Virus genome (UHGV): UHGV-1720524
Reading direction: 5' to 3' (one strand)
Source of the DNA: a virus
DNA length: 24,552 bases
Shown: piece by piece, positions 2,121-24,335 of the stretch
Layout: each line of letters begins with the position of its first letter
Numbering within the stretch: the stretch's first letter is position 1
Position numbers and translations under genes: made by a program
Notes under the pieces: model-generated
What the model saw: the letters and a program-made list of their open reading frames with translations, nothing else
What the model was told of the DNA's origin: nothing
Database searches by the model: none

Positions 2121-2918
2121 TTATAGCTCCTTTAATCGAGGCGGTTCTGGTAGAGGCATCCAGTGGGTTACACCGCCAATTGGCTCATCGTCGTCGTACT
2201 CCAATGCGGCTATATAGAACCCGTCACGACGAGAATAAGAAATCCCGGACATTACAATGCCATCCGAAACAACAATAATGTCACCCGTTTCTTTCGGCAT
2301 TCGCTCACTACAGCTTATCCAACCATCCGGAGTCACCGGAAGCGAGAACGGCAGCACATCTCTGTGAACAAGTTTTTGCTGTGACAGGTTATCCAGAACT
2401 TTCTGTACTGCTGCATCACCGAATACACCAAGCGCATCTGCCATAACTCCTACAACCTGATAAGCCTCAGCGCATACCGTGGATAAACCATCCGGAATTA
2501 CCGGAGAGTTGCCGGGTTCTTTAATGTGCAAGCGAGGCTCACCATCTTTTGGTTCAGGCCACTGGCGCTCCATGTTGATCTTCAATTTATCTTCCATAGC
2601 AGCGGTAATTTCAGCATCGCTGATGCCAGCACGGCGCTGTGCATCCCACAACAGGAAATGCATATCAGCCCACTCGCTGAGATCGTCTGGTTCGGCTGCG
2701 GCTTCCAGAGCCTCTTTTGAGAGGTGTTTCAGTGGACCAATGGGGCCAACGCAGCCAAATGTGGAGTCAGACCATTTGGCATGCTCGTGGCGAATCAGTT
2801 CGCGTTCCAGTGATGCCAGTGCAATTCGTGCCAGTTCCATTTGTTCGCCACGAGTAAGCCCGTTTTCAAGCGGATTTTTAATGAACAATTCAATACGTTC
2901 TTTGGTAATAGTGGTCAT
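2121..2918 (-). CDS. DUF551-family prophage protein (265 aa)
   Basis: C-terminal DGWISCSERMPKE...THWMPLPEPP resembles DUF551; shares the NSPVIPDG motif and N-terminal pattern with the ORF at 12912-13718. Confidence 0.5.
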   Translation of the reverse strand: MTTITKERIELFIKNPLENGLTRGEQMELARIALASLERELIRHEHAKWSDSTFGCVGPIGPLKHLSKEALEAAAEPDDLSEWADMHFLLWDAQRRAGISDAEITAAMEDKLKINMERQWPEPKDGEPRLHIKEPGNSPVIPDGLSTVCAEAYQVVGVMADALGVFGDAAVQKVLDNLSQQKLVHRDVLPFSLPVTPDGWISCSERMPKETGDIIVVSDGIVMSGISYSRRDGFYIAALEYDDDEPIGGVTHWMPLPEPPRLKEL

Positions 2919-2928
2919 TTGTTAGTCC

Positions 2929-3684
2929 TTAAACTGCTAGTTGCAATTGCATTTCAAAGCGGTCGCGTTGTTCACAATACGCAAGAGAACCAGGGCTATT
3001 GTGTGCCTCAATCCGTTCTACCATTAATGCTGCGCGTGTCTCTTTACTTGCAGGTGCATAAGCCCCAGACCAGGCTTTATCAATACCGATGTTTCGAGCG
3101 ACGTTCGTACTATCTGCGCTGGCTAAGGGTAATTTTGTGAATATCAGCGGATTTAACATGCGCAATCCATGTAGTTTCGTAACCGGCTGACCATGCCCAT
3201 CAACAATGTGACGAATCAGGTCTTTCATTCTGGCTACCGCAAGAGTTGGGCGCTTTACGTCATAGTCGCCACAACTACCGATAGCCACTCGCGGAAACTC
3301 ATTGCACAAATGAATAAATCGCGCGTCACTTTCATTCATGTGCCACACTGGAACGCCAGCTAGTTTTCCGTGAGGCCACTCATTCAGAAGCGCATCATTT
3401 TCCTCCTCTCCGCCATCAATAATATCCGGGATAATGGCAAAATCGAATCCTGGGTGATTCTTCCAGCGAGCAACAAACTCGTAGTAATCGCTCCAGTCGA
3501 TTTTGTTTTTGCCAGCTGCTTTCCAGGCGGTGAATGCACCGTTGTCCAGCGCGAACGACTGACAGTATTCAGCCGCGAGATTGATCTGGCCTGAATGCGC
3601 AAAACTGATAAACGCATGTCGCCCTTTCCATGCTCTCATTGCGCACGTATCAGGAGTAATAGGCCCACCGTGGTAGTGAATCAT
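2929..3684 (-). CDS. Candidate TGT-fold / DpdA-like DNA transglycosylase (about 251 aa from the Met at 3684)
   Basis: Motifs spaced like those of tRNA-guanine transglycosylase: FALDNGAFTAW (cf. LTDSGGFQ), RVAIGSCGD (cf. YAVGGLAVGE), KLHGLRMLNP (cf. RYLMGVGKPED), LASADSTNVA (cf. GIDMFDCV). Start placed at MIHYHGG because of the GGAGAG Shine-Dalgarno and stop/start coupling with the upstream gene. Assignment is tentative. Confidence 0.4.
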   Translation of the reverse strand: MIHYHGGPITPDTCAMRAWKGRHAFISFAHSGQINLAAEYCQSFALDNGAFTAWKAAGKNKIDWSDYYEFVARWKNHPGFDFAIIPDIIDGGEEENDALLNEWPHGKLAGVPVWHMNESDARFIHLCNEFPRVAIGSCGDYDVKRPTLAVARMKDLIRHIVDGHGQPVTKLHGLRMLNPLIFTKLPLASADSTNVARNIGIDKAWSGAYAPASKETRAALMVERIEAHNSPGSLAYCEQRDRFEMQLQLAV

Positions 3685-3685
3685 C

Positions 3686-4093
3686 TCACTCTCCTTTGAT
3701 GCGAATGCCAGTAGCGCGGATTGCATCGATGACTTCAGAAACTTTGTATGCCATTACCGTTTGGTAATCATCGTGAAAATCTGTTCGATGAAGCATGCTG
3801 CTACGTTCCGGGAGCAGTATTTCCCGCGCTTCCAGTTCTGCAATGCGCTTTTTTGCTGCTTCCAGTTCATCCAGTAATTCCAGCACGGTAGCCGGATTAG
3901 CCTTGGCAACAAAATCCCGGACTGGCTTACAATCAATCTCCGCAATGGGTTGATACGATGTGTAGCCATGCTGTCTTGTATAACTACCGTGACGAATAAC
4001 GAAAAAATCACCATTTATTTTTTTAGCCTGCCACTTATCTTCACCGGCTTTCTCTGCCGCTTCACGCAGTGCCTGAGAGTTAATTTCGCTCAC
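3686..4093 (-). CDS. Ea22-like protein (135 aa)
   Basis: Contains ANPATVLELLDELEAAKKRIAELE, a motif shared with the ORF at 12502-12915 and with lambda Ea22-type proteins as recalled. Confidence 0.55.
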   Translation of the reverse strand: MSEINSQALREAAEKAGEDKWQAKKINGDFFVIRHGSYTRQHGYTSYQPIAEIDCKPVRDFVAKANPATVLELLDELEAAKKRIAELEAREILLPERSSMLHRTDFHDDYQTVMAYKVSEVIDAIRATGIRIKGE

Positions 4094-4311
4094 TTCGAAC
4101 CTCTCTGTTTACTGATAAGCTCCAGATCCTCCTGGCAACTTGCACAAGTCCGACAACCCTGAACGACCAGGCGTCTTCGTTCATCTATCGGATCGCCACA
4201 CTCACAACAATGAGTGGCAGATACAGTCTGGTAGTTCAGACGACACATTTTTATTGCTGTGTTGCGCTGTAATTCTTCAATTTCTGATGCTGAATCAATG
4301 ATGTCTGCCAT
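4090..4311 (-). CDS. TraR/DksA-type C4 zinc-finger protein (73 aa)
   Basis: CCECGDPIDERRR...CRTCASCQ: four-Cys motif with the spacing typical of phage TraR/DksA-family proteins; 4-nt overlap with the upstream gene. Confidence 0.6.
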   Translation of the reverse strand: MADIIDSASEIEELQRNTAIKMCRLNYQTVSATHCCECGDPIDERRRLVVQGCRTCASCQEDLELISKQRGSK

Positions 4312-4409
4312 CTTCCATTAATCCCTGAATTGTTGGTTAATACGCTTGAGGGTGAATGCGAATAATAAAAAAGGAGCCTGTAGCTCCCTGATGATTTTGC
4401 TTTTCATGT

Positions 4410-12278: not shown

Positions 12279-12505
12279 GCAACATCGACAAACCAATGAC
12301 AAACCGTGAACTGGTGGATGCCGCCATTGAATTGGCCGGAGAGTTTTATGCGATGCAGGGCTATTCGCATCGTCCTGGCTTCAAGTATTGGCAATCTCCG
12401 CACCCGCATGAGCGCCTGTGCTTTGAAATGGCTTGCGTGGCATTCGAAACCATTCGCGGCTCAGATGTAATGGACGCCGTATCTGAGTTGGAGGATGAAG
12501 AATGA
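12275..12505 (+). CDS. Hypothetical protein (76 aa), starts MSNIDK
   Basis: Translationally coupled ORF; first 19 nt (ATGAGCAACATCGACAAAC) identical to the start of the next gene. Confidence 0.5.
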   Translation: MSNIDKPMTNRELVDAAIELAGEFYAMQGYSHRPGFKYWQSPHPHERLCFEMACVAFETIRGSDVMDAVSELEDEE

Positions 12506-12915
12506 GCAACATCGACAAACGCGCATTACGTGAAATCGCTGAGGCAGCAGTTGGTGCGCATGAGCGCCTTAGTGTTATGCCGCCTGATGACATTTTCGAT
12601 ATCTCACTGGCAGAAGGAACTCAGCTTGATGCAGATATCACTGCCTTGAACGCGCTGAACTCCGCAGCCAACCCAGCCACAGTGCTGGCGCTGCTGGATG
12701 AGCTGGAAGCCAAAGACCAGAGGATTGCTGTGCTGACCGAATCGCTCAAGCAGACGGTTTCAGGATACAAATCCTGCCTGCGTACCGGACATGAGCGCAT
12801 TCTTGACCTTGGCGGTGACTGTGACGCGCCAGAAGTGATGATTGCAGGCAATCCTGACATTCAGCAGGCGCAGAAGCTGATCGCCGCCGCATCCGGTAAA
12901 GGAGAGGCATCATGA
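12502..12915 (+). CDS. Ea22-like protein (137 aa), paralog of 3686-4093
   Basis: Shares ANPATVLALLDELEAKDQRIA with the minus-strand Ea22-like ORF. Confidence 0.55.
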   Translation: MSNIDKRALREIAEAAVGAHERLSVMPPDDIFDISLAEGTQLDADITALNALNSAANPATVLALLDELEAKDQRIAVLTESLKQTVSGYKSCLRTGHERILDLGGDCDAPEVMIAGNPDIQQAQKLIAAASGKGEAS

Positions 12916-16772: not shown

Positions 16773-17855
16773 TTAGAACTGGTAAACCATACCTACAGCA
16801 ACGATATCATCGGTAGCAACGCCAGATGCTTTCGTGAAATCGCTCTTATCAATCAGGTTGATTTTGTAGTCAACAAAAGTGGACATATTTTTGTTGAAGT
16901 AATAGGTTGCACCTACATCAACATATTCAACCAGGTCCTGATCACCCCAAACACCCAAGTCTTTTCCTTTAGAATGCAGGTAAGCAACGGATGGACGCAG
17001 GCCGAAGTCGAACTGATATTGTGCAACAGCTTCGAAGTTTTGTGCTTTGTTGGCAATATGGTTATTACCAAAAACAGTCATGTTCTGGGTTTCAGAATAG
17101 GTGGTGGCCAGATAGATGTTGTTCGCATCATATTTCAGACCAGCTGCCCATACTTCAGCATTTTGACCAGAAGCATTCAGACCGTTGTTACCGTAGATAA
17201 CCTGATTATTAGTGCGATCAGATTTAGCATAGGTTGCACCCACGCCGAATCCTTCATACTCATAAGTAGTTGAGAAACCGAAACCATCGCCATTAGCTTC
17301 AGTTACTTCATTTCGGTCATTTTTGCCCTGATACTGAGCTGCAAAGTTCAGGCCATCAACCAGACCAAAGAAGTCGTTGTTACGATAAGTTGCAACACCT
17401 GTGGTGCGACCAGTCATGAATACATCTGTTTGGGTCCAGGTATCGCCACCGAATTCTGGCAGAACGTCAGTCCACGCACCGATGTCGTATGCTACACCGT
17501 AGTTACGGCCGTAATCGATTGAGCCGTAGTCACCGAATTTCAGGCCTGCAAATGCAAGACGGGTTTTGTCTTTGGAGGAACCTTGAGATTCAGCGCGGTT
17601 GCCTTTGAATTCATATTCCCACTGACCGAAACCAGTCAGTTGATCGTTGATTTGGGTTTCACCTTTGAAGCCAAGACGGGCATAAGTAGTATCACCATCA
17701 TCTGCATCATTAGAGGAGAAGTAGTGCTTAGCATTAACTTTCCCGTACAGATCCAGCTTGTTACTGTCTTTATTATAAATTTCAGCTGCCTGAGCAGACA
17801 TCGCCATCAGTACTGATGCAGCTACAGCAGAAATTGCCACTGTTAATTTTTTCAT
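16773..17855 (-). CDS. nmpC: Outer-membrane general porin (OmpC/OmpF family; phage-borne NmpC/Lc type), 360 aa, apparently intact
   Basis: Signal peptide [30 protein letters not shown]...LDLYGK start, and C-terminal ...VAVGMVYQF typical of enterobacterial porins; located between Q and the holin on the opposite strand as in DLP12/PA-2. Confidence 0.9.
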
Positions 17856-19601: not shown

Positions 19602-19738
19602 AATCTTAACTACAATATGATTCATTTTGATGATTGTTTCATAAGGAACAGTGAAGTAAGATCTAAGAGGAGTTAAATTTTATACAGTATAATCATAATA
19701 TTGCAGCAAGGTGGTTATAATTGAAAGAATATTTAGAT

Positions 19739-21196
19739 ATGAATACATCTCATGTAAGAGTTGTTACTCATATGTGTGGGTTCCTGGTTTGGCTCTATAG
19801 TCTTTCAATGTTGCCACCAATGGTTGTAGCATTGTTTTATAAAGAAAAAAGCCTGTTCGTTTTCTTTATAACTTTCGTTATATTTTTTTGCATTGGTGGC
19901 GGAGCGTGGTATACAACTAAGAAATCTGGCATTCAATTACGTACCCGTGATGGGTTTATTATAATTGTAATGTTTTGGATTTTGTTTTCTGTTATTAGTG
20001 CATTCCCTTTATGGATTGACTCAGAACTTAATTTAACGTTCATTGATGCTCTGTTTGAAGGGGTTTCTGGAATAACAACAACAGGAGCAACTGTAATTGA
20101 TGATGTTAGTTCATTACCTCGGGCATATTTGTACTATCGGTCACAGTTAAATTTTATAGGTGGTTTAGGAGTTATTGTTCTGGCGGTTGCTGTATTGCCA
20201 TTATTGGGTATTGGTGGTGCAAAGCTTTATCAGTCAGAAATGCCGGGGCCATTTAAGGATGACAAACTCACTCCCCGCCTGGCCGATACGTCACGGACAC
20301 TGTGGATAACTTATTCTTTATTAGGTATTGCTTGTATTGTCTGTTATAGACTTGCAGGAATGCCTTTGTTTGATGCTATTTGTCACGGGATTTCCACAGT
20401 TTCGCTTGGTGGTTTCTCAACTCATAGCGAGAGTATCGGATATTTTAATAACTATTTGGTTGAGCTGGTGGCTGGTTCTTTTTCCCTGCTATCGGCTTTC
20501 AACTTCACTCTTTGGTATATTGTTATTAGCAGGAAAACGATAAAACCTTTAATCAGAGATATTGAACTTCGTTTCTTTCTGTTAATAGCCTTAGGGGTGA
20601 TCATTGTTACCTCTTTCCAGGTCTGGCATATAGGTATGTATGACTTGCATGGAAGTTTTATTCATTCGTTTTTTCTTGCCAGCTCCATGCTCACTGATAA
20701 TGGTTTAGCTACGCAGGATTATGCAAGTTGGCCCACGCACACGATAGTGTTTTTGCTGTTGTCAAGTTTCTTTGGGGGATGTATAGGTTCAACTTGTGGT
20801 GGAATTAAGTCACTTCGATTTCTTATACTTTTCAAACAAAGCAAACACGAGATAAATCAGCTTTCTCATCCCAGAGCGTTGTTGAGTGTAAATGTAGGAG
20901 GGAAGATAGTTACAGATCGTGTAATGAGGTCTGTATGGAGTTTCTTTTTTCTTTATACTCTCTTCACGGTGTTTTTTATACTGGTGTTAAATGGTATGGG
21001 ATATGATTTTCTTACATCATTTGCAACAGTGGCTGCATGTATTAATAATATGGGATTAGGTTTTGGGGCTACTGCATCGTCATTCGGAGTGCTTAATGAC
21101 ATTGCAAAATGTTTAATGTGCATAGCTATGATTCTTGGTCGCCTTGAAATTTATCCTGTTATTATATTGTTTTCAGGTTTTTTTTGGCGCTCCTAA
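19739..21196 (+). CDS. trkG: TrkG/TrkH-family K+ uptake membrane protein (485 aa from MNTSHVRVV), AT-rich moron
   Basis: Polytopic membrane protein matching Rac-prophage TrkG as recalled; low GC; preceded by an AT-rich region with TATAAT-like boxes. The track ORF starts at an upstream TTG. Confidence 0.88.
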   Translation: MNTSHVRVVTHMCGFLVWLYSLSMLPPMVVALFYKEKSLFVFFITFVIFFCIGGGAWYTTKKSGIQLRTRDGFIIIVMFWILFSVISAFPLWIDSELNLTFIDALFEGVSGITTTGATVIDDVSSLPRAYLYYRSQLNFIGGLGVIVLAVAVLPLLGIGGAKLYQSEMPGPFKDDKLTPRLADTSRTLWITYSLLGIACIVCYRLAGMPLFDAICHGISTVSLGGFSTHSESIGYFNNYLVELVAGSFSLLSAFNFTLWYIVISRKTIKPLIRDIELRFFLLIALGVIIVTSFQVWHIGMYDLHGSFIHSFFLASSMLTDNGLATQDYASWPTHTIVFLLLSSFFGGCIGSTCGGIKSLRFLILFKQSKHEINQLSHPRALLSVNVGGKIVTDRVMRSVWSFFFLYTLFTVFFILVLNGMGYDFLTSFATVAACINNMGLGFGATASSFGVLNDIAKCLMCIAMILGRLEIYPVIILFSGFFWRS

Positions 21197-21333: not shown

Positions 21334-22125
21334 ATGAGCGAGAAATTAAAGATAGTCTATCGCCCATTACAAGAATTGTCACCGTATGCGCACAACGCCA
21401 GGACGCACAGCCCTGAGCAGGTGGCACAACTGGTAGAAAGTATTAAGCAATTCGGCTGGACTAATCCGGTGCTGATTGACGAAAAGGGCGAAATTATTGC
21501 GGGTCACGGTCGTGTTATGGCGGCTGAAATGCTCAAAATGGATTCTGTTCCGGTCATTGTTCTGTCTGGCCTGACGGATGAGCAGAAAAAGGCGTACCGC
21601 CTGGCAGATAATCGCCTGCCGATGAATGCTGGCTGGGATGAAGATCTGTTGCGGATGGAGCTGTCGGACCTAATCAATGCTGATTTTGATGTCTCCCTGA
21701 CAGGCTTCATCCCGACAGAAATTGATGAACTGTTGACGGATGTTTTGCCCGGTACAGGAAATGAGGAGGAGCCGTATACGACGAAAATTGATACGCCTGT
21801 TTATGAGCCGTCGGGCGGTAAACCGGATATCAGTGAACTGTACGACGATACGAAAACTCAGGAGCTGATCAGCCGGATACGTTCGGCGTCCCTTGAGCCT
21901 GATATTGAGAAATTCCTCCTGTGTGCGGCAGAACGTCACACGGTGTTTAATTTCAGCAGAATTGCGGACTATTACGCTCACGCCCCCTCTGAAATTCAGT
22001 GTTTTTTCGAGGAGTCGGCGCTGGTGATCATTGATTATCAGCAGGCTATTGAAAATGGATTTGTCCGGATGACGCAGCGCATGGTGGAGATCATGCATGG
22101 TGGTGAGGAGGAGGAATATGCGTGA
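21334..22125 (+). CDS. ParB-like nuclease-domain protein (263 aa)
   Basis: N-terminal L.ELSPYAHNARTHS...PVLID.KGEIIAGHGRVMAA resembles the ParB/Srx N-terminal domain (GHxR motif); acidic C-terminal tail. Confidence 0.6.
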   Translation: MSEKLKIVYRPLQELSPYAHNARTHSPEQVAQLVESIKQFGWTNPVLIDEKGEIIAGHGRVMAAEMLKMDSVPVIVLSGLTDEQKKAYRLADNRLPMNAGWDEDLLRMELSDLINADFDVSLTGFIPTEIDELLTDVLPGTGNEEEPYTTKIDTPVYEPSGGKPDISELYDDTKTQELISRIRSASLEPDIEKFLLCAAERHTVFNFSRIADYYAHAPSEIQCFFEESALVIIDYQQAIENGFVRMTQRMVEIMHGGEEEEYA

Positions 22126-23050
22126 TGATTTTTGCGCCTTTATTCTGACTCACGGGCGACCGGACAAAGTTCTGACTTACCGGACGTTGCGTCGTGCTGG
22201 CTATACCGGGAAAATTTTTATCGTTGTTGATGATGAAGATAAGACACGGAATCAGTACATGGCTGAATTTGGTGAACAGGTGCTGGTGTTTTCCAAAGCC
22301 GATATCGCCAGTCGTTTTGACGAAGCCGATAATTTCTGTGACCGCCGCTCAATTTTTTACGCCCGTAATGCCTGTTTCGACCTGGCAAAACTGGTCGGGT
22401 GTAAATACTTCATTCAGCTCGATGATGATTATCACGAGTTCCAGTTTCGGGTGGATCGCAACTATGACCAGGCCTATTTTCCGATAAGGAAACTGGATGC
22501 GATCCTTTCTGAAATGCTGGCGTACTACGAATCAATACCTGCTCTTTCCATCGCTATGTCGCAGGGCGGGGATTTTCTTGGTGACAATGGCGGCCATGCT
22601 TCGTGGGTGAAACGCAAGGCAATGAACAGCTTTATCTGTTCGGTTGATCGACCGTTCTCATTCATGGGGCGCATTAACGAGGATGTGAATACGTACACGA
22701 ATCTCGGTCGCTGTGGTGAATTGTTTATGACGATCGGTGCTGTCCAGTTAGGGCAGAAACAGACGCAGAAAAACAGCGGCGGAATGACCGAGCTGTATCT
22801 GGATTCCGGAACCTACGTTAAAAGTTTTTACTCCGTCATGTATGCGCCGTCGTGCGTAAAAATCTCACTGATGGGTGCCAGCCATAAACGCATTCACCAT
22901 CAGGTCACCTGGAACAACGCTGCAGTAAAAATCCTTCACGAAAAATACAGGAAGAAGACACCCTGCATATCAATGGGGATGACAAATGATTCCGTATTCG
23001 AAAGTCGAGTCTCTGGCAGCGTGCCGGATGACTGCACAACAAATCGCTGA
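22118..23050 (+). CDS. Protein of unknown function with Rossmann-like N-terminus and DxD-type motif (FIQLDDDYHEF); possible GT-A-like transferase (310 aa from MRDDF)
   Basis: Beta-alpha-beta pattern FCAFILTHGRPDKVLTYRTLRRAGYTGKIFIVVDDED and later DDD motif; GAGGAGGAGG Shine-Dalgarno before the MRDDF start; overlaps the ParB-like stop by 8 nt. Family assignment is speculative. Confidence 0.45.
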   Translation: MRDDFCAFILTHGRPDKVLTYRTLRRAGYTGKIFIVVDDEDKTRNQYMAEFGEQVLVFSKADIASRFDEADNFCDRRSIFYARNACFDLAKLVGCKYFIQLDDDYHEFQFRVDRNYDQAYFPIRKLDAILSEMLAYYESIPALSIAMSQGGDFLGDNGGHASWVKRKAMNSFICSVDRPFSFMGRINEDVNTYTNLGRCGELFMTIGAVQLGQKQTQKNSGGMTELYLDSGTYVKSFYSVMYAPSCVKISLMGASHKRIHHQVTWNNAAVKILHEKYRKKTPCISMGMTNDSVFESRVSGSVPDDCTTNR

Positions 23051-23240: not shown

Positions 23241-24335
23241 ATGAGCAGACCGGACTGGGGGGCGTTGCAGCAGGAGTATATTGCTGAATACACCCGCTCC
23301 GGTATATCTCCGGTGGCATGGTGTGAAGCAAGGGGACTGAATTACGCAACAGCCCGTCGTTACATCAAAAAAACTCCGAAAAATGCGCAGACAGAAATGT
23401 GCAAAACTGCGCAAAAAAGTGCGCAGAAAAAATCTGCGCAGACTGCACAAAAGCGGAACGAAAAATCTCAGGAAAAAAAGCCAGTATTCGATGCGGGCCT
23501 GAATGAGGGCGACGCGGAGGAATTTTCGTTCTGTCCCGATGAATTCGGCATTTCTGACCAGCAGGCTAAGTTTGCGATGCTTGTTGCTCAGGGTAAAAAG
23601 CCGACAGAGGCGTACCGACTAGCCGGTTATGAGGGGCAAGGTGCGACAGCTAACAGCAACGCCAGTCGTATGCTTAGAAATGCCAGGGTTTTTCGCGCTA
23701 TCAGCTACTTCCGCAATCAGTACCAGAAACGCTATACCGCAGACCTGGATTTACTAGTGAGTCAGTTGATGGCTATTGTCCTGGCCGACCCCAATCAGCT
23801 TGCACAATTTCGCCGTGTTAACTGCCGTTATTGCTGGGGCGAGAATCATCTCTACCAGTGGCGCGATATAGCAGAATTCGACAAGGCAGCGGCGCAGGCT
23901 TCCAGAGATGGCAAACCCGAACCGGAATATGGAGGCCTCGGCTTTGTTGATAACGCCATACCCAATCCGGACTGCCCGAAGTGCTGCGGTGAGGGAACGG
24001 GACAGCTTTATATGGCTGATACCACTCTGCTTGATGGGGATGCGCGGCAATTATATGCAGGGGCAAAATTCGGAAAATTCGGCGTTGAGATCCTGCTGGA
24101 GGATAAGGCTGCCGCCCGGCGTGAATTGTTGCGTTTGTTTTCTGCTGGCGGGGCTTTATGTGCAGATAAACGGCTACAGGAACTGGAAATTGAACGGCGC
24201 AGAATGGAAAACCAGAAGCTGCGCAAAGAGATCGAAACGGTGGAAGATAATGAACATCCCCAGCCTGTGGCGATCAATATTAATGTGGTTGATGCCAGAG
24301 TAAGGAGTGATGAAGATGATCTCTCCGACGCTTAA
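23241..24335 (+). CDS. Terminase small subunit (Terminase_2-like core with N-terminal extension), 364 aa
   Basis: FAMLVAQGKKPTEAYRLAGYEG...ANSNASRMLRNARVFRAISYF resembles the terminase small-subunit family signature; immediately precedes a Walker-A ORF. Confidence 0.7.
   Translation: MSRPDWGALQQEYIAEYTRSGISPVAWCEARGLNYATARRYIKKTPKNAQTEMCKTAQKSAQKKSAQTAQKRNEKSQEKKPVFDAGLNEGDAEEFSFCPDEFGISDQQAKFAMLVAQGKKPTEAYRLAGYEGQGATANSNASRMLRNARVFRAISYFRNQYQKRYTADLDLLVSQLMAIVLADPNQLAQFRRVNCRYCWGENHLYQWRDIAEFDKAAAQASRDGKPEPEYGGLGFVDNAIPNPDCPKCCGEGTGQLYMADTTLLDGDARQLYAGAKFGKFGVEILLEDKAAARRELLRLFSAGGALCADKRLQELEIERRRMENQKLRKEIETVEDNEHPQPVAININVVDARVRSDEDDLSDA

Follow-up and report, generated by a model that had tools for sequence, protein, structure and literature searches.

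The DpdA of phage 9g, a DNA-modifying relative of the tRNA-guanine transglycosylases (TGTs), puts preQ0 into plasmid DNA in Escherichia coli when expressed alone (PMC6884629). 9g and other Queuovirinae (CAjan, Bas24, iggy) carry the type called DpdA1, while a separate set of gamma-proteobacterial phages encodes stand-alone, or singleton, DpdAs: SPN3UB, BTP1, SfI, HK106, 7-11 and MED16 (gp38), which correspond to group 3 of Hutinet et al. and to the “DpdA/TGT_1” cluster of PMC8306585. Here, we examine a 251-residue protein encoded by the UHGV virus genome UHGV-1720524, the whole 24,552-nucleotide stretch of which is referred to below as the window. The window is a lambdoid prophage inserted beside ybhC, in the lambda attachment region, and the gene lies on its minus strand (coordinates of all features are in Table 1). 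We conclude that this gene probably encodes a singleton phage DpdA, i.e. a minimal (β/α)8-barrel member of the TGT superfamily that acts on DNA.

The closest known counterparts of the protein are the singleton DpdAs. The protein is 98.4% identical to that of a Stx1a-converting phage and, over its full length, 92.4% identical to SPN3UB YP_007011024 and to the BTP1 protein, both from Salmonella phages. Identity is 67% with the SfI protein, 60-69% with proteins of Klebsiella and Vibrio temperate phages, 39% with gp38 of Pantoea phage MED16 (E 2e-43) and 35% with the 7-11 DpdA (E 8e-32). The singleton DpdAs are of the same family and size, and the phages encoding them resemble this prophage in having no preQ0 genes, in their temperate lambdoid or P22-like context and in the Ead/Ea22-type genes adjacent to dpdA. 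Nothing essential differs, although this E. coli prophage, located at the lambda attachment site, carries its copy in the int-proximal leftward early region, unlike SPN3UB. Hutinet et al. 2019 (PMC6884629, Supplementary Data 1) list SPN3UB YP_007011024 and the proteins of BTP1, SfI, HK106, SEN1 and 7-11 as DpdAs. The family assignment is correct but has been known since then, and adds nothing to Hutinet et al. 2019; in the literature after 2019, we found no study that deals with the DpdAs of temperate enterobacterial phages, lambdoid or other.

Homology to phage DpdAs

Two profile-based comparisons connect the protein to validated DpdA. Firstly, PHROG 887, which bears the name “queuine tRNA-ribosyltransferase”, is common to this protein (E 2.6e-101), to 9g DpdA (2e-98) and to 7-11 DpdA (7e-74). 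Secondly, a 70-sequence alignment of the family was compared using hhalign with 9g DpdA, giving a probability of 98.2% (E 4e-14), and with a 9g-type DpdA alignment, giving 98.9% (E 1.5e-17). These matches span 152-160 columns, with about 21% identity to 9g DpdA in the aligned core, and pair LDNGAF with LDSGAF, VAIGS with TLGG, KLHGLRM with KVHGFGI and SADST with SCDSS (this family and 9g, respectively). Judged by the hhalign and PHROG 887 E-values, the resemblance to DpdA lies far beyond chance. The family is large: in a library clustered at 50% identity, 1527 cluster representatives were recovered at an E-value of 1e-3 or better.

With DpdA1 of the Queuovirinae (9g YP_009032326), the protein shares the catalytic core, PHROG 887 and the LD[NS]GAF, HG and [AC]DS motifs. 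The two types differ in size, since 9g DpdA has 317 residues with N- and C-terminal extensions, and in context, the gene studied here lying in a prophage without precursor genes; moreover, DNA modification in the tested relatives of this protein is at or below 0.13% of G. The relationship to tRNA TGTs, i.e. bacterial Tgt and archaeal ArcTGT (PF01702), is one of common fold, double-displacement catalytic residues and motif order. Differences are the Tgt zinc site, formed by Cys302, Cys304, Cys307 and a downstream His, and the length of the protein, which is about 120 residues shorter and has no PF01702 match. Neither the family profile nor the DpdA1 profile gave a significant hhalign match to the single E. 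coli Tgt sequence; the best, non-significant local match of the DpdA1 profile was the LDSGAF/TDSGGF motif.

Catalytic residues, zinc site and predicted structure

The original prediction drew on four motif strings, FALDNGAFTAW, RVAIGSCGD, HGLRMLNP and ADSTNV, which are indeed present in the order given, and the TGT strings placed opposite them (LTDSGGFQ, YAVGGLAVGE, MGVGKPED and DMFDCV) all occur in E. coli Tgt. We then measured conservation over 70 relatives, the most distant of which is 32% identical. No variation was seen at D47, H172, D191 or S192, while each of D87, H115 and G136 is conserved in at least 90% of the sequences.

Asp47, the predicted general acid/base, aligns as the counterpart of the Asp of 9g LDSGAF and would correspond to Asp95 of bacterial DpdA and to the Asp of TDSGGF in TGT. 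Asp191, the predicted nucleophile, would be the counterpart of Asp256 of bacterial DpdA, Asp280 of TGT and Asp248 of Cap10. The match of D47 and D191 to Asp95 and Asp256 follows from motif and order and, like the equivalences of D87, H115 and G136, is inferred. In bacterial DpdA, mutation of either Asp95 or Asp256 abolishes guanine exchange (PMC10164549). Asp87, a candidate for base recognition, may be the counterpart of Asp130 of bacterial DpdA and Asp156 of TGT; in the hhalign register to 9g, the 9g Asp falls three residues later than Asp87. In the alignment with 9g DpdA, His172 falls opposite His196, a residue that DpdA2 is without and that separates DpdA from it (PMC6884629). The Cap10 counterpart of His172 is His226, the partner there of the nucleophile Asp248 (10.1101/2025.04.06.647259).

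The C-terminal zinc-binding cluster is absent, as had been noted originally. Cysteines are found at positions 14, 41, 127, 138 and 237 only, none of them invariant, and the C-terminal subdomain is missing. 9g DpdA likewise has no zinc Cys/His cluster. In contrast, the bacterial DpdA of Salmonella Montevideo (PDB 7UI4) is longer, at 413 residues, and has a structural zinc site as well as four insertions (PMC10164549), none of which are seen here. The missing zinc site thus excludes the canonical architecture of a tRNA TGT or of bacterial DpdA, and still allows the phage DpdA family.

A model computed with AlphaFold2 from a deeper alignment has a predicted local distance difference test score (pLDDT) of 93.5, a predicted template modelling score of 0.90 and eight β strands, and superseded a first model from a shallow alignment (pLDDT 71), for which Foldseek returned generic triosephosphate isomerase (TIM) barrels with TGT at rank 36. 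The original prediction had named a fold other than a TIM barrel as evidence against itself; the predicted fold is a (β/α)8 TIM barrel, and among such barrels it appears most like TGT-type enzymes. The conserved polar residues are each modelled at, or just past, the C-terminal end of successive strands. Active sites of TIM barrels are located at the C-terminal strand ends. Together, PHROG 887, the 98.9% hhalign match and the invariant catalytic Asp/His/Asp support the view, first advanced in that prediction, of a TGT-fold DpdA-family protein without the zinc subdomain.

These features also bear on whether the enzyme could be directed at tRNA, exchanging guanine in host or phage tRNA and thereby retuning translation during lytic growth. 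We regard this as very improbable. The fold and the catalytic residues are those of TGT, but the protein is without the zinc subdomain and is also missing the C-terminal elements by which TGTs dimerise and bind tRNA (251 versus 375 residues). The label “queuine tRNA-ribosyltransferase”, attached to PHROG 887 and to several GenBank records, was inherited by homology and does not come from an assay. The sparse modification of 7-11 and MED16 DNA described below could be a side activity of a tRNA enzyme (PMC6884629, PMC8306585); the demonstrable sequence kin, however, are the DNA-modifying 9g-type DpdAs (PMC6884629), and the family profile fails to align with E. coli Tgt. We infer that the substrate is DNA, not tRNA.

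Proposed mechanism and precursor supply

For a singleton DpdA, we propose the following sequence of events. Once the prophage is induced, or upon infection, the gene would be transcribed as part of the delayed-early leftward operon. Following replication, a guanine would be flipped out of double-stranded phage DNA, and Asp191, positioned by His172, would attack C1’ and displace the guanine, so that enzyme and DNA are joined covalently as an intermediate, and Asp47 would serve as general acid/base. A free 7-deazaguanine base made by the host queuosine pathway (folE-queD-queE-queC), either preQ0 or its amide 7-amido-7-deazaguanine (ADG), would then attack the intermediate and stay in the DNA. 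The phage itself would need to encode neither a partner nor a precursor gene.

The genomic context was examined for precursor genes and partners. The genes of the window that are annotated or were scanned with Pfam include none of folE, queC, queD and queE. We also surveyed the neighbours of dpdA in 80 related viral loci by sequence clustering only, without family scans, and no queC/D/E-like cluster stood out. The host was originally expected to supply the base, and it can, queC being present in 5425 of 5426 E. coli genomes. In the 80 loci, neighbours are highly variable (Ead/Ea22, DNA adenine and cytosine methyltransferases, RusA and others) and no partner is conserved, which fits a stand-alone enzyme. 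The protein thus looks self-sufficient, like 9g DpdA expressed alone.

Two candidate partners were considered and rejected. A conserved ParB-like (DpdB-like) neighbour, apparent at 33 loci in a first clustering, was an artefact of single linkage, and direct classification left 1 of 80. A functional tie to the downstream dATP/dGTP pyrophosphohydrolase gene was likewise abandoned: the PF04447 segment occurs in 10 of the 80 loci, mostly in near-identical prophages. A purine-dNTP hydrolase adjoining a guanine-replacing enzyme is suggestive, yet it is an operon neighbour and not a conserved partner.

Expected level of modification

The DNA of two DpdA-only phages with homologous enzymes has been analysed. 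That of 7-11 contains 50 dADG per 10^6 nucleotides, or about 0.02% of G (PMC6884629), and that of MED16 contains 354 dADG and 3 dPreQ0 per 10^6 nucleotides, or about 0.13% of G (PMC8306585); in neither phage were the dADG levels linked to dpdA by knockout (PMC6884629, PMC8306585). By extension from these relatives, the product expected here is a sparse, probably sequence-specific dADG/dPreQ0 mark at about 0.02-0.1% of G, or between a few and a few tens of sites per genome, and not bulk hypermodification. For a 48-kilobase genome with about 24,000 G, the 0.02-0.13% of the relatives would amount to about 5-30 sites.

Such values weaken one part of the original prediction. It had proposed that the prophage may hypermodify its DNA as an anti-restriction strategy; with 0.02-0.13% of G modified in the analysed homologous DpdA-only phages, this is not supported as worded. 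Nor do the MED16 data support a broad anti-restriction role, since the restriction enzymes tested did cut the DNA of this phage (PMC8306585). The nucleoside found in the analysed phages is dADG and not dPreQ0, with only the trace of dPreQ0 in MED16.

A more specific version of the singleton DpdA reading is that the DpdA-only clade of temperate phages provides not a bulk anti-restriction device but site-specific writers that place a handful of ADG marks in each genome, perhaps using ADG and not preQ0. We consider this unlikely as it stands. Both tested relatives contain dADG without an identified DpdC-like amidase. If the idea were true, the sparse mark could be a self-label, a block to one defence system, or a signal in replication, packaging or expression, and if the enzyme were in addition expressed at low level from the prophage, the host chromosome could be marked too.

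Weighing a DNA-modifying singleton DpdA

A number of results weigh against a DNA-modifying singleton DpdA, and they concern in turn the searches, the fold, the context and the biochemistry of relatives. Firstly, scans of the 251-residue protein with Pfam, NCBIfam and PADLOC gave no match, and HMMER searches with family profiles against PDB sequences gave only chance matches, none to a TGT or DpdA. A Pfam scan of 60 relatives found none that matches the TGT model PF01702. As a control, the validated 9g DpdA was treated in the same way: it too has no Pfam match and no relevant PDB sequence match, a 9g-type profile returning chance matches. Because this validated enzyme also draws a blank, the empty Pfam and PDB results are uninformative and not refuting. 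The same holds for the Pfam TGT profile check put forward in the original prediction, in which a missing match was to count against it: the match to PF01702 is formally missing, but the check is insensitive to phage DpdAs.

Secondly, Foldseek with the better model returned generic TIM barrels only, and in the structural comparison the closest match was Cap10, which handles protein-linked deazaguanine, not DNA. Unrelated TIM barrels follow at 13.1 and below, a modest margin. Since this margin is modest and Foldseek does not separate the candidates, the fold evidence was weighed jointly with the sequence evidence. Cap10 (type IV of the cyclic oligonucleotide-based antiphage signalling systems, PDB 9NTN) acts together with a QueC-like protein, Cap9, and with a CD-NTase that bears the deazaguanine on its N-terminus, a Gly-rich tail. 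An enzyme of this kind, which binds or transfers a 7-deazaguanine attached to a protein or other non-DNA acceptor and does not insert a free base into DNA, is in our estimation the least credible of the alternatives. Despite the structural match, sequence homology is demonstrable to DpdA and not to Cap10, and the histidine shared with Cap10 is conserved in the DNA-modifying 9g DpdA as well (PMC6884629). Cap10 is a component of bacterial defence, whereas the present gene is a phage early gene with no Cap9/CD-NTase operon around it. A QueC-like Cap9, a CD-NTase and any other conjugation partner are absent from the window, nor did one appear among the neighbours in the related loci, which were not family-scanned.

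Thirdly, bacterial DpdA depends on an ATPase, DpdB (PMC10164549), whereas the gene studied here has no partner of that kind beside it. In the bacterial Dpd system, DpdA needs this ParB-like ATPase, DpdC turns dPreQ0 into dADG, and the genes lie in a defence island with restriction components. None of this is present at our locus: DpdB, DpdC and dpdD-K were not found adjacent to the gene, where the neighbours are TraR/DksA, Ead/Ea22 and PF04447-DUF551 genes.

Finally, modification is very low in the tested relatives, and the biochemically tested relatives all fall outside the close clade (at least 65% identity) of the protein. Singleton DpdAs cluster separately by host clade, and functional divergence is left as a question by the authors of that work (PMC6884629). 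Phage Orion, which has a singleton DpdA, shows no modification at all (PMC6884629). These points suggest another possibility, namely a DNA glycosylase or exchange enzyme with a different purpose, such as removal of guanine or a modified base from host or competitor DNA or insertion of a base other than a 7-deazaguanine, or else a weakly active, drifting accessory gene. We judge this unlikely, though less so than either a tRNA-directed or a Cap10-like enzyme. Relatives are modified at trace level, MED16 has no restriction protection (PMC8306585), and the accessory region that holds the gene is highly mosaic, with neighbours that change; against this possibility, none of the catalytic residues varies among 70 diverse relatives, and the size of the family (1527 representatives) argues for a selected enzymatic function. 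The Orion result is explained by its host, which is without the preQ0 pathway (PMC6884629). Both of the tested Enterobacterales phages contain dADG, which is a 7-deazaguanine, and apart from dpdA no phage gene was linked to it. Possible divergence or weakness of the activity is the main source of uncertainty in assigning the protein as a DNA-modifying singleton DpdA.

Recognition of this gene as dpdA provides a correct annotation for a gene that is unnamed in RefSeq, Pfam and NCBIfam. It flags the temperate phages that carry it, including the Stx1a-converting phage and the Salmonella prophage BTP1, as possible bearers of 7-deazaguanine, which is relevant to nanopore and restriction analysis of phage DNA and to sensitivity to deazaguanine-targeting defences (GrwAB, Dag glycosylases). 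It also bears on what benefit DpdA-only phages might draw from a mark at less than 0.2% of G.

Start site and position in the prophage

The N-terminus of the protein reads MIHYHGGPITP, and 23 of 23 aligned homologues open with MIH[YF]HGG. The RefSeq coding sequence of the same 756 nucleotides is WP_000582229.1, named “hypothetical protein”. A longer open reading frame, starting from an ATG at 3726, was rejected since its extension runs into the upstream Ead/Ea22 gene. The TGA stop of the latter is at 3688-3686, between the ribosome-binding site and the start codon of the DpdA gene. The upstream block (3686..4311) is tightly packed, with neighbouring stop and start codons 1 nucleotide apart or overlapping, and the downstream PF04447-DUF551 gene begins 10 nucleotides past the DpdA stop.

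The minus-strand block that includes the DpdA gene sits between exo/bet/gam and int/xis, below a cI-type repressor gene; its description as part of an early-left operon is therefore correct. A consensus scan of the minus strand between 1200 and 9400 found no sigma-70-like promoter. With terminator-like hairpins bracketing the block on both sides, this fits delayed-early expression that would depend on antitermination from the leftward early promoter.

Table 1 Features of the window discussed in the text
Feature	Position	Strand	Basis
Coding sequence, DpdA-family (TGT-superfamily) transglycosylase homologue, 251 residues	2929..3684	minus	open reading frame
AGGAG ribosome-binding site, 6 nucleotides before the ATG, within the 3’ end of the Ead/Ea22 gene	3691..3695	minus	read from sequence
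Asp47 codon (LDNGAF), predicted general acid/base	3544..3546	minus	invariant; aligned with 9g LDSGAFS; end of model strand 43-47
Asp87 codon (IIPDII), candidate base-recognition Asp	3424..3426	minus	at least 90% conserved; just past model strand 80-84
His172 codon (KLHGLRML)	3169..3171	minus	invariant; aligned with 9g KVHGFGIT
Asp191 codon (SADST), predicted nucleophile for the covalent enzyme-DNA intermediate	3112..3114	minus	invariant with Ser192; aligned with 9g SCDSS; model strand 189-192
Terminator-like hairpin upstream of the block	4371..4389	minus	consensus scan
TraR/DksA zinc-finger gene, upstream	4090-4311	minus	Pfam PF01258
Ead/Ea22-like gene, directly upstream of the DpdA gene	3686-4093	minus	Pfam PF13935
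dATP/dGTP pyrophosphohydrolase domain (PF04447, formerly DUF550) fused to DUF551, downstream	2121..2918	minus	Pfam, 1.1e-41 / 7.3e-14
Second terminator-like hairpin, other side of the block	1687-1706	minus	consensus scan
OmpC/OmpD-type general porin gene, between the Q antiterminator and lysis genes, opposite strand	16773-17855	minus	PF00267, E 4e-152
TrkH/TrkG-type potassium transporter gene, full-length, cargo between Rz and the ParB_N/terminase region	19721-21196	plus	PF02386, E 5e-145
ParB_N-domain gene (PF02195; PHROG 620), overlapping the next gene	21334-22125	plus	domain match
TET-associated glycosyltransferase gene (PF20691; PHROG 842 “beta-glucosyl-HMC-alpha-glucosyltransferase”)	22097-23050	plus	domain match, E 8e-35

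A second Ead/Ea22-like gene (PF13935) is present in the prophage at 12502-12915 on the plus strand, in the region after the replication genes. SPN3UB carries its DpdA gene downstream of the replication genes, the type of position held by this second Ead/Ea22 copy, which points to movement of Ead/Ea22-flanked cassettes from one of these accessory regions to the other.

A candidate second DNA-modification module and other cargo

The only ParB_N protein of the window is encoded 17.6 kilobases from the DpdA gene and is paired with a TET-associated glycosyltransferase, the two genes lying directly upstream of that for the terminase small subunit (23241-24335). We saw no TET/JBP gene in the window. 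GenBank records show a ParB-like gene beside the homologue in Lactobacillus phage phi jlb1 and in Haloarcula virus HHTV-2; homologues are also known from Nocardia and large Vibrio phages and, near the genome start, from Lactobacillus delbrueckii phages. We regard the pair as a candidate second DNA-modification module. A linkage between it and DpdA was considered and rejected: the 36 phage records that carry the pair share no accession with the best 60 of 107 DpdA records.

Other cargo includes the potassium transporter gene and the porin gene listed in Table 1. The latter is lysogenic-conversion cargo common in related lambdoid phages.

Distribution in E. coli and database records

The DpdA gene is found in 303 of 5426 complete E. 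coli genomes (about 5.6%), in prophages, a count that includes relatives at only 60-80% nucleotide identity. The E. coli copies are always labelled “hypothetical protein”.

Two database records deserve mention. The 7-11 DpdA (AEK81947.1, 3986-4690) is annotated with a TTG start (LIKALYRGGG...) and is without the first strand of the family, MIHYHGGPI. Its start could be mis-annotated, or the first barrel strand could truly be missing, which could bear on the very low activity. The 1719-base-pair record OR850331.1, “Staphylococcus phage SA 1298 Kay”, is most likely mislabelled or a contaminant, given that this enterobacterial gene is found in it as a 92.4%-identical copy.

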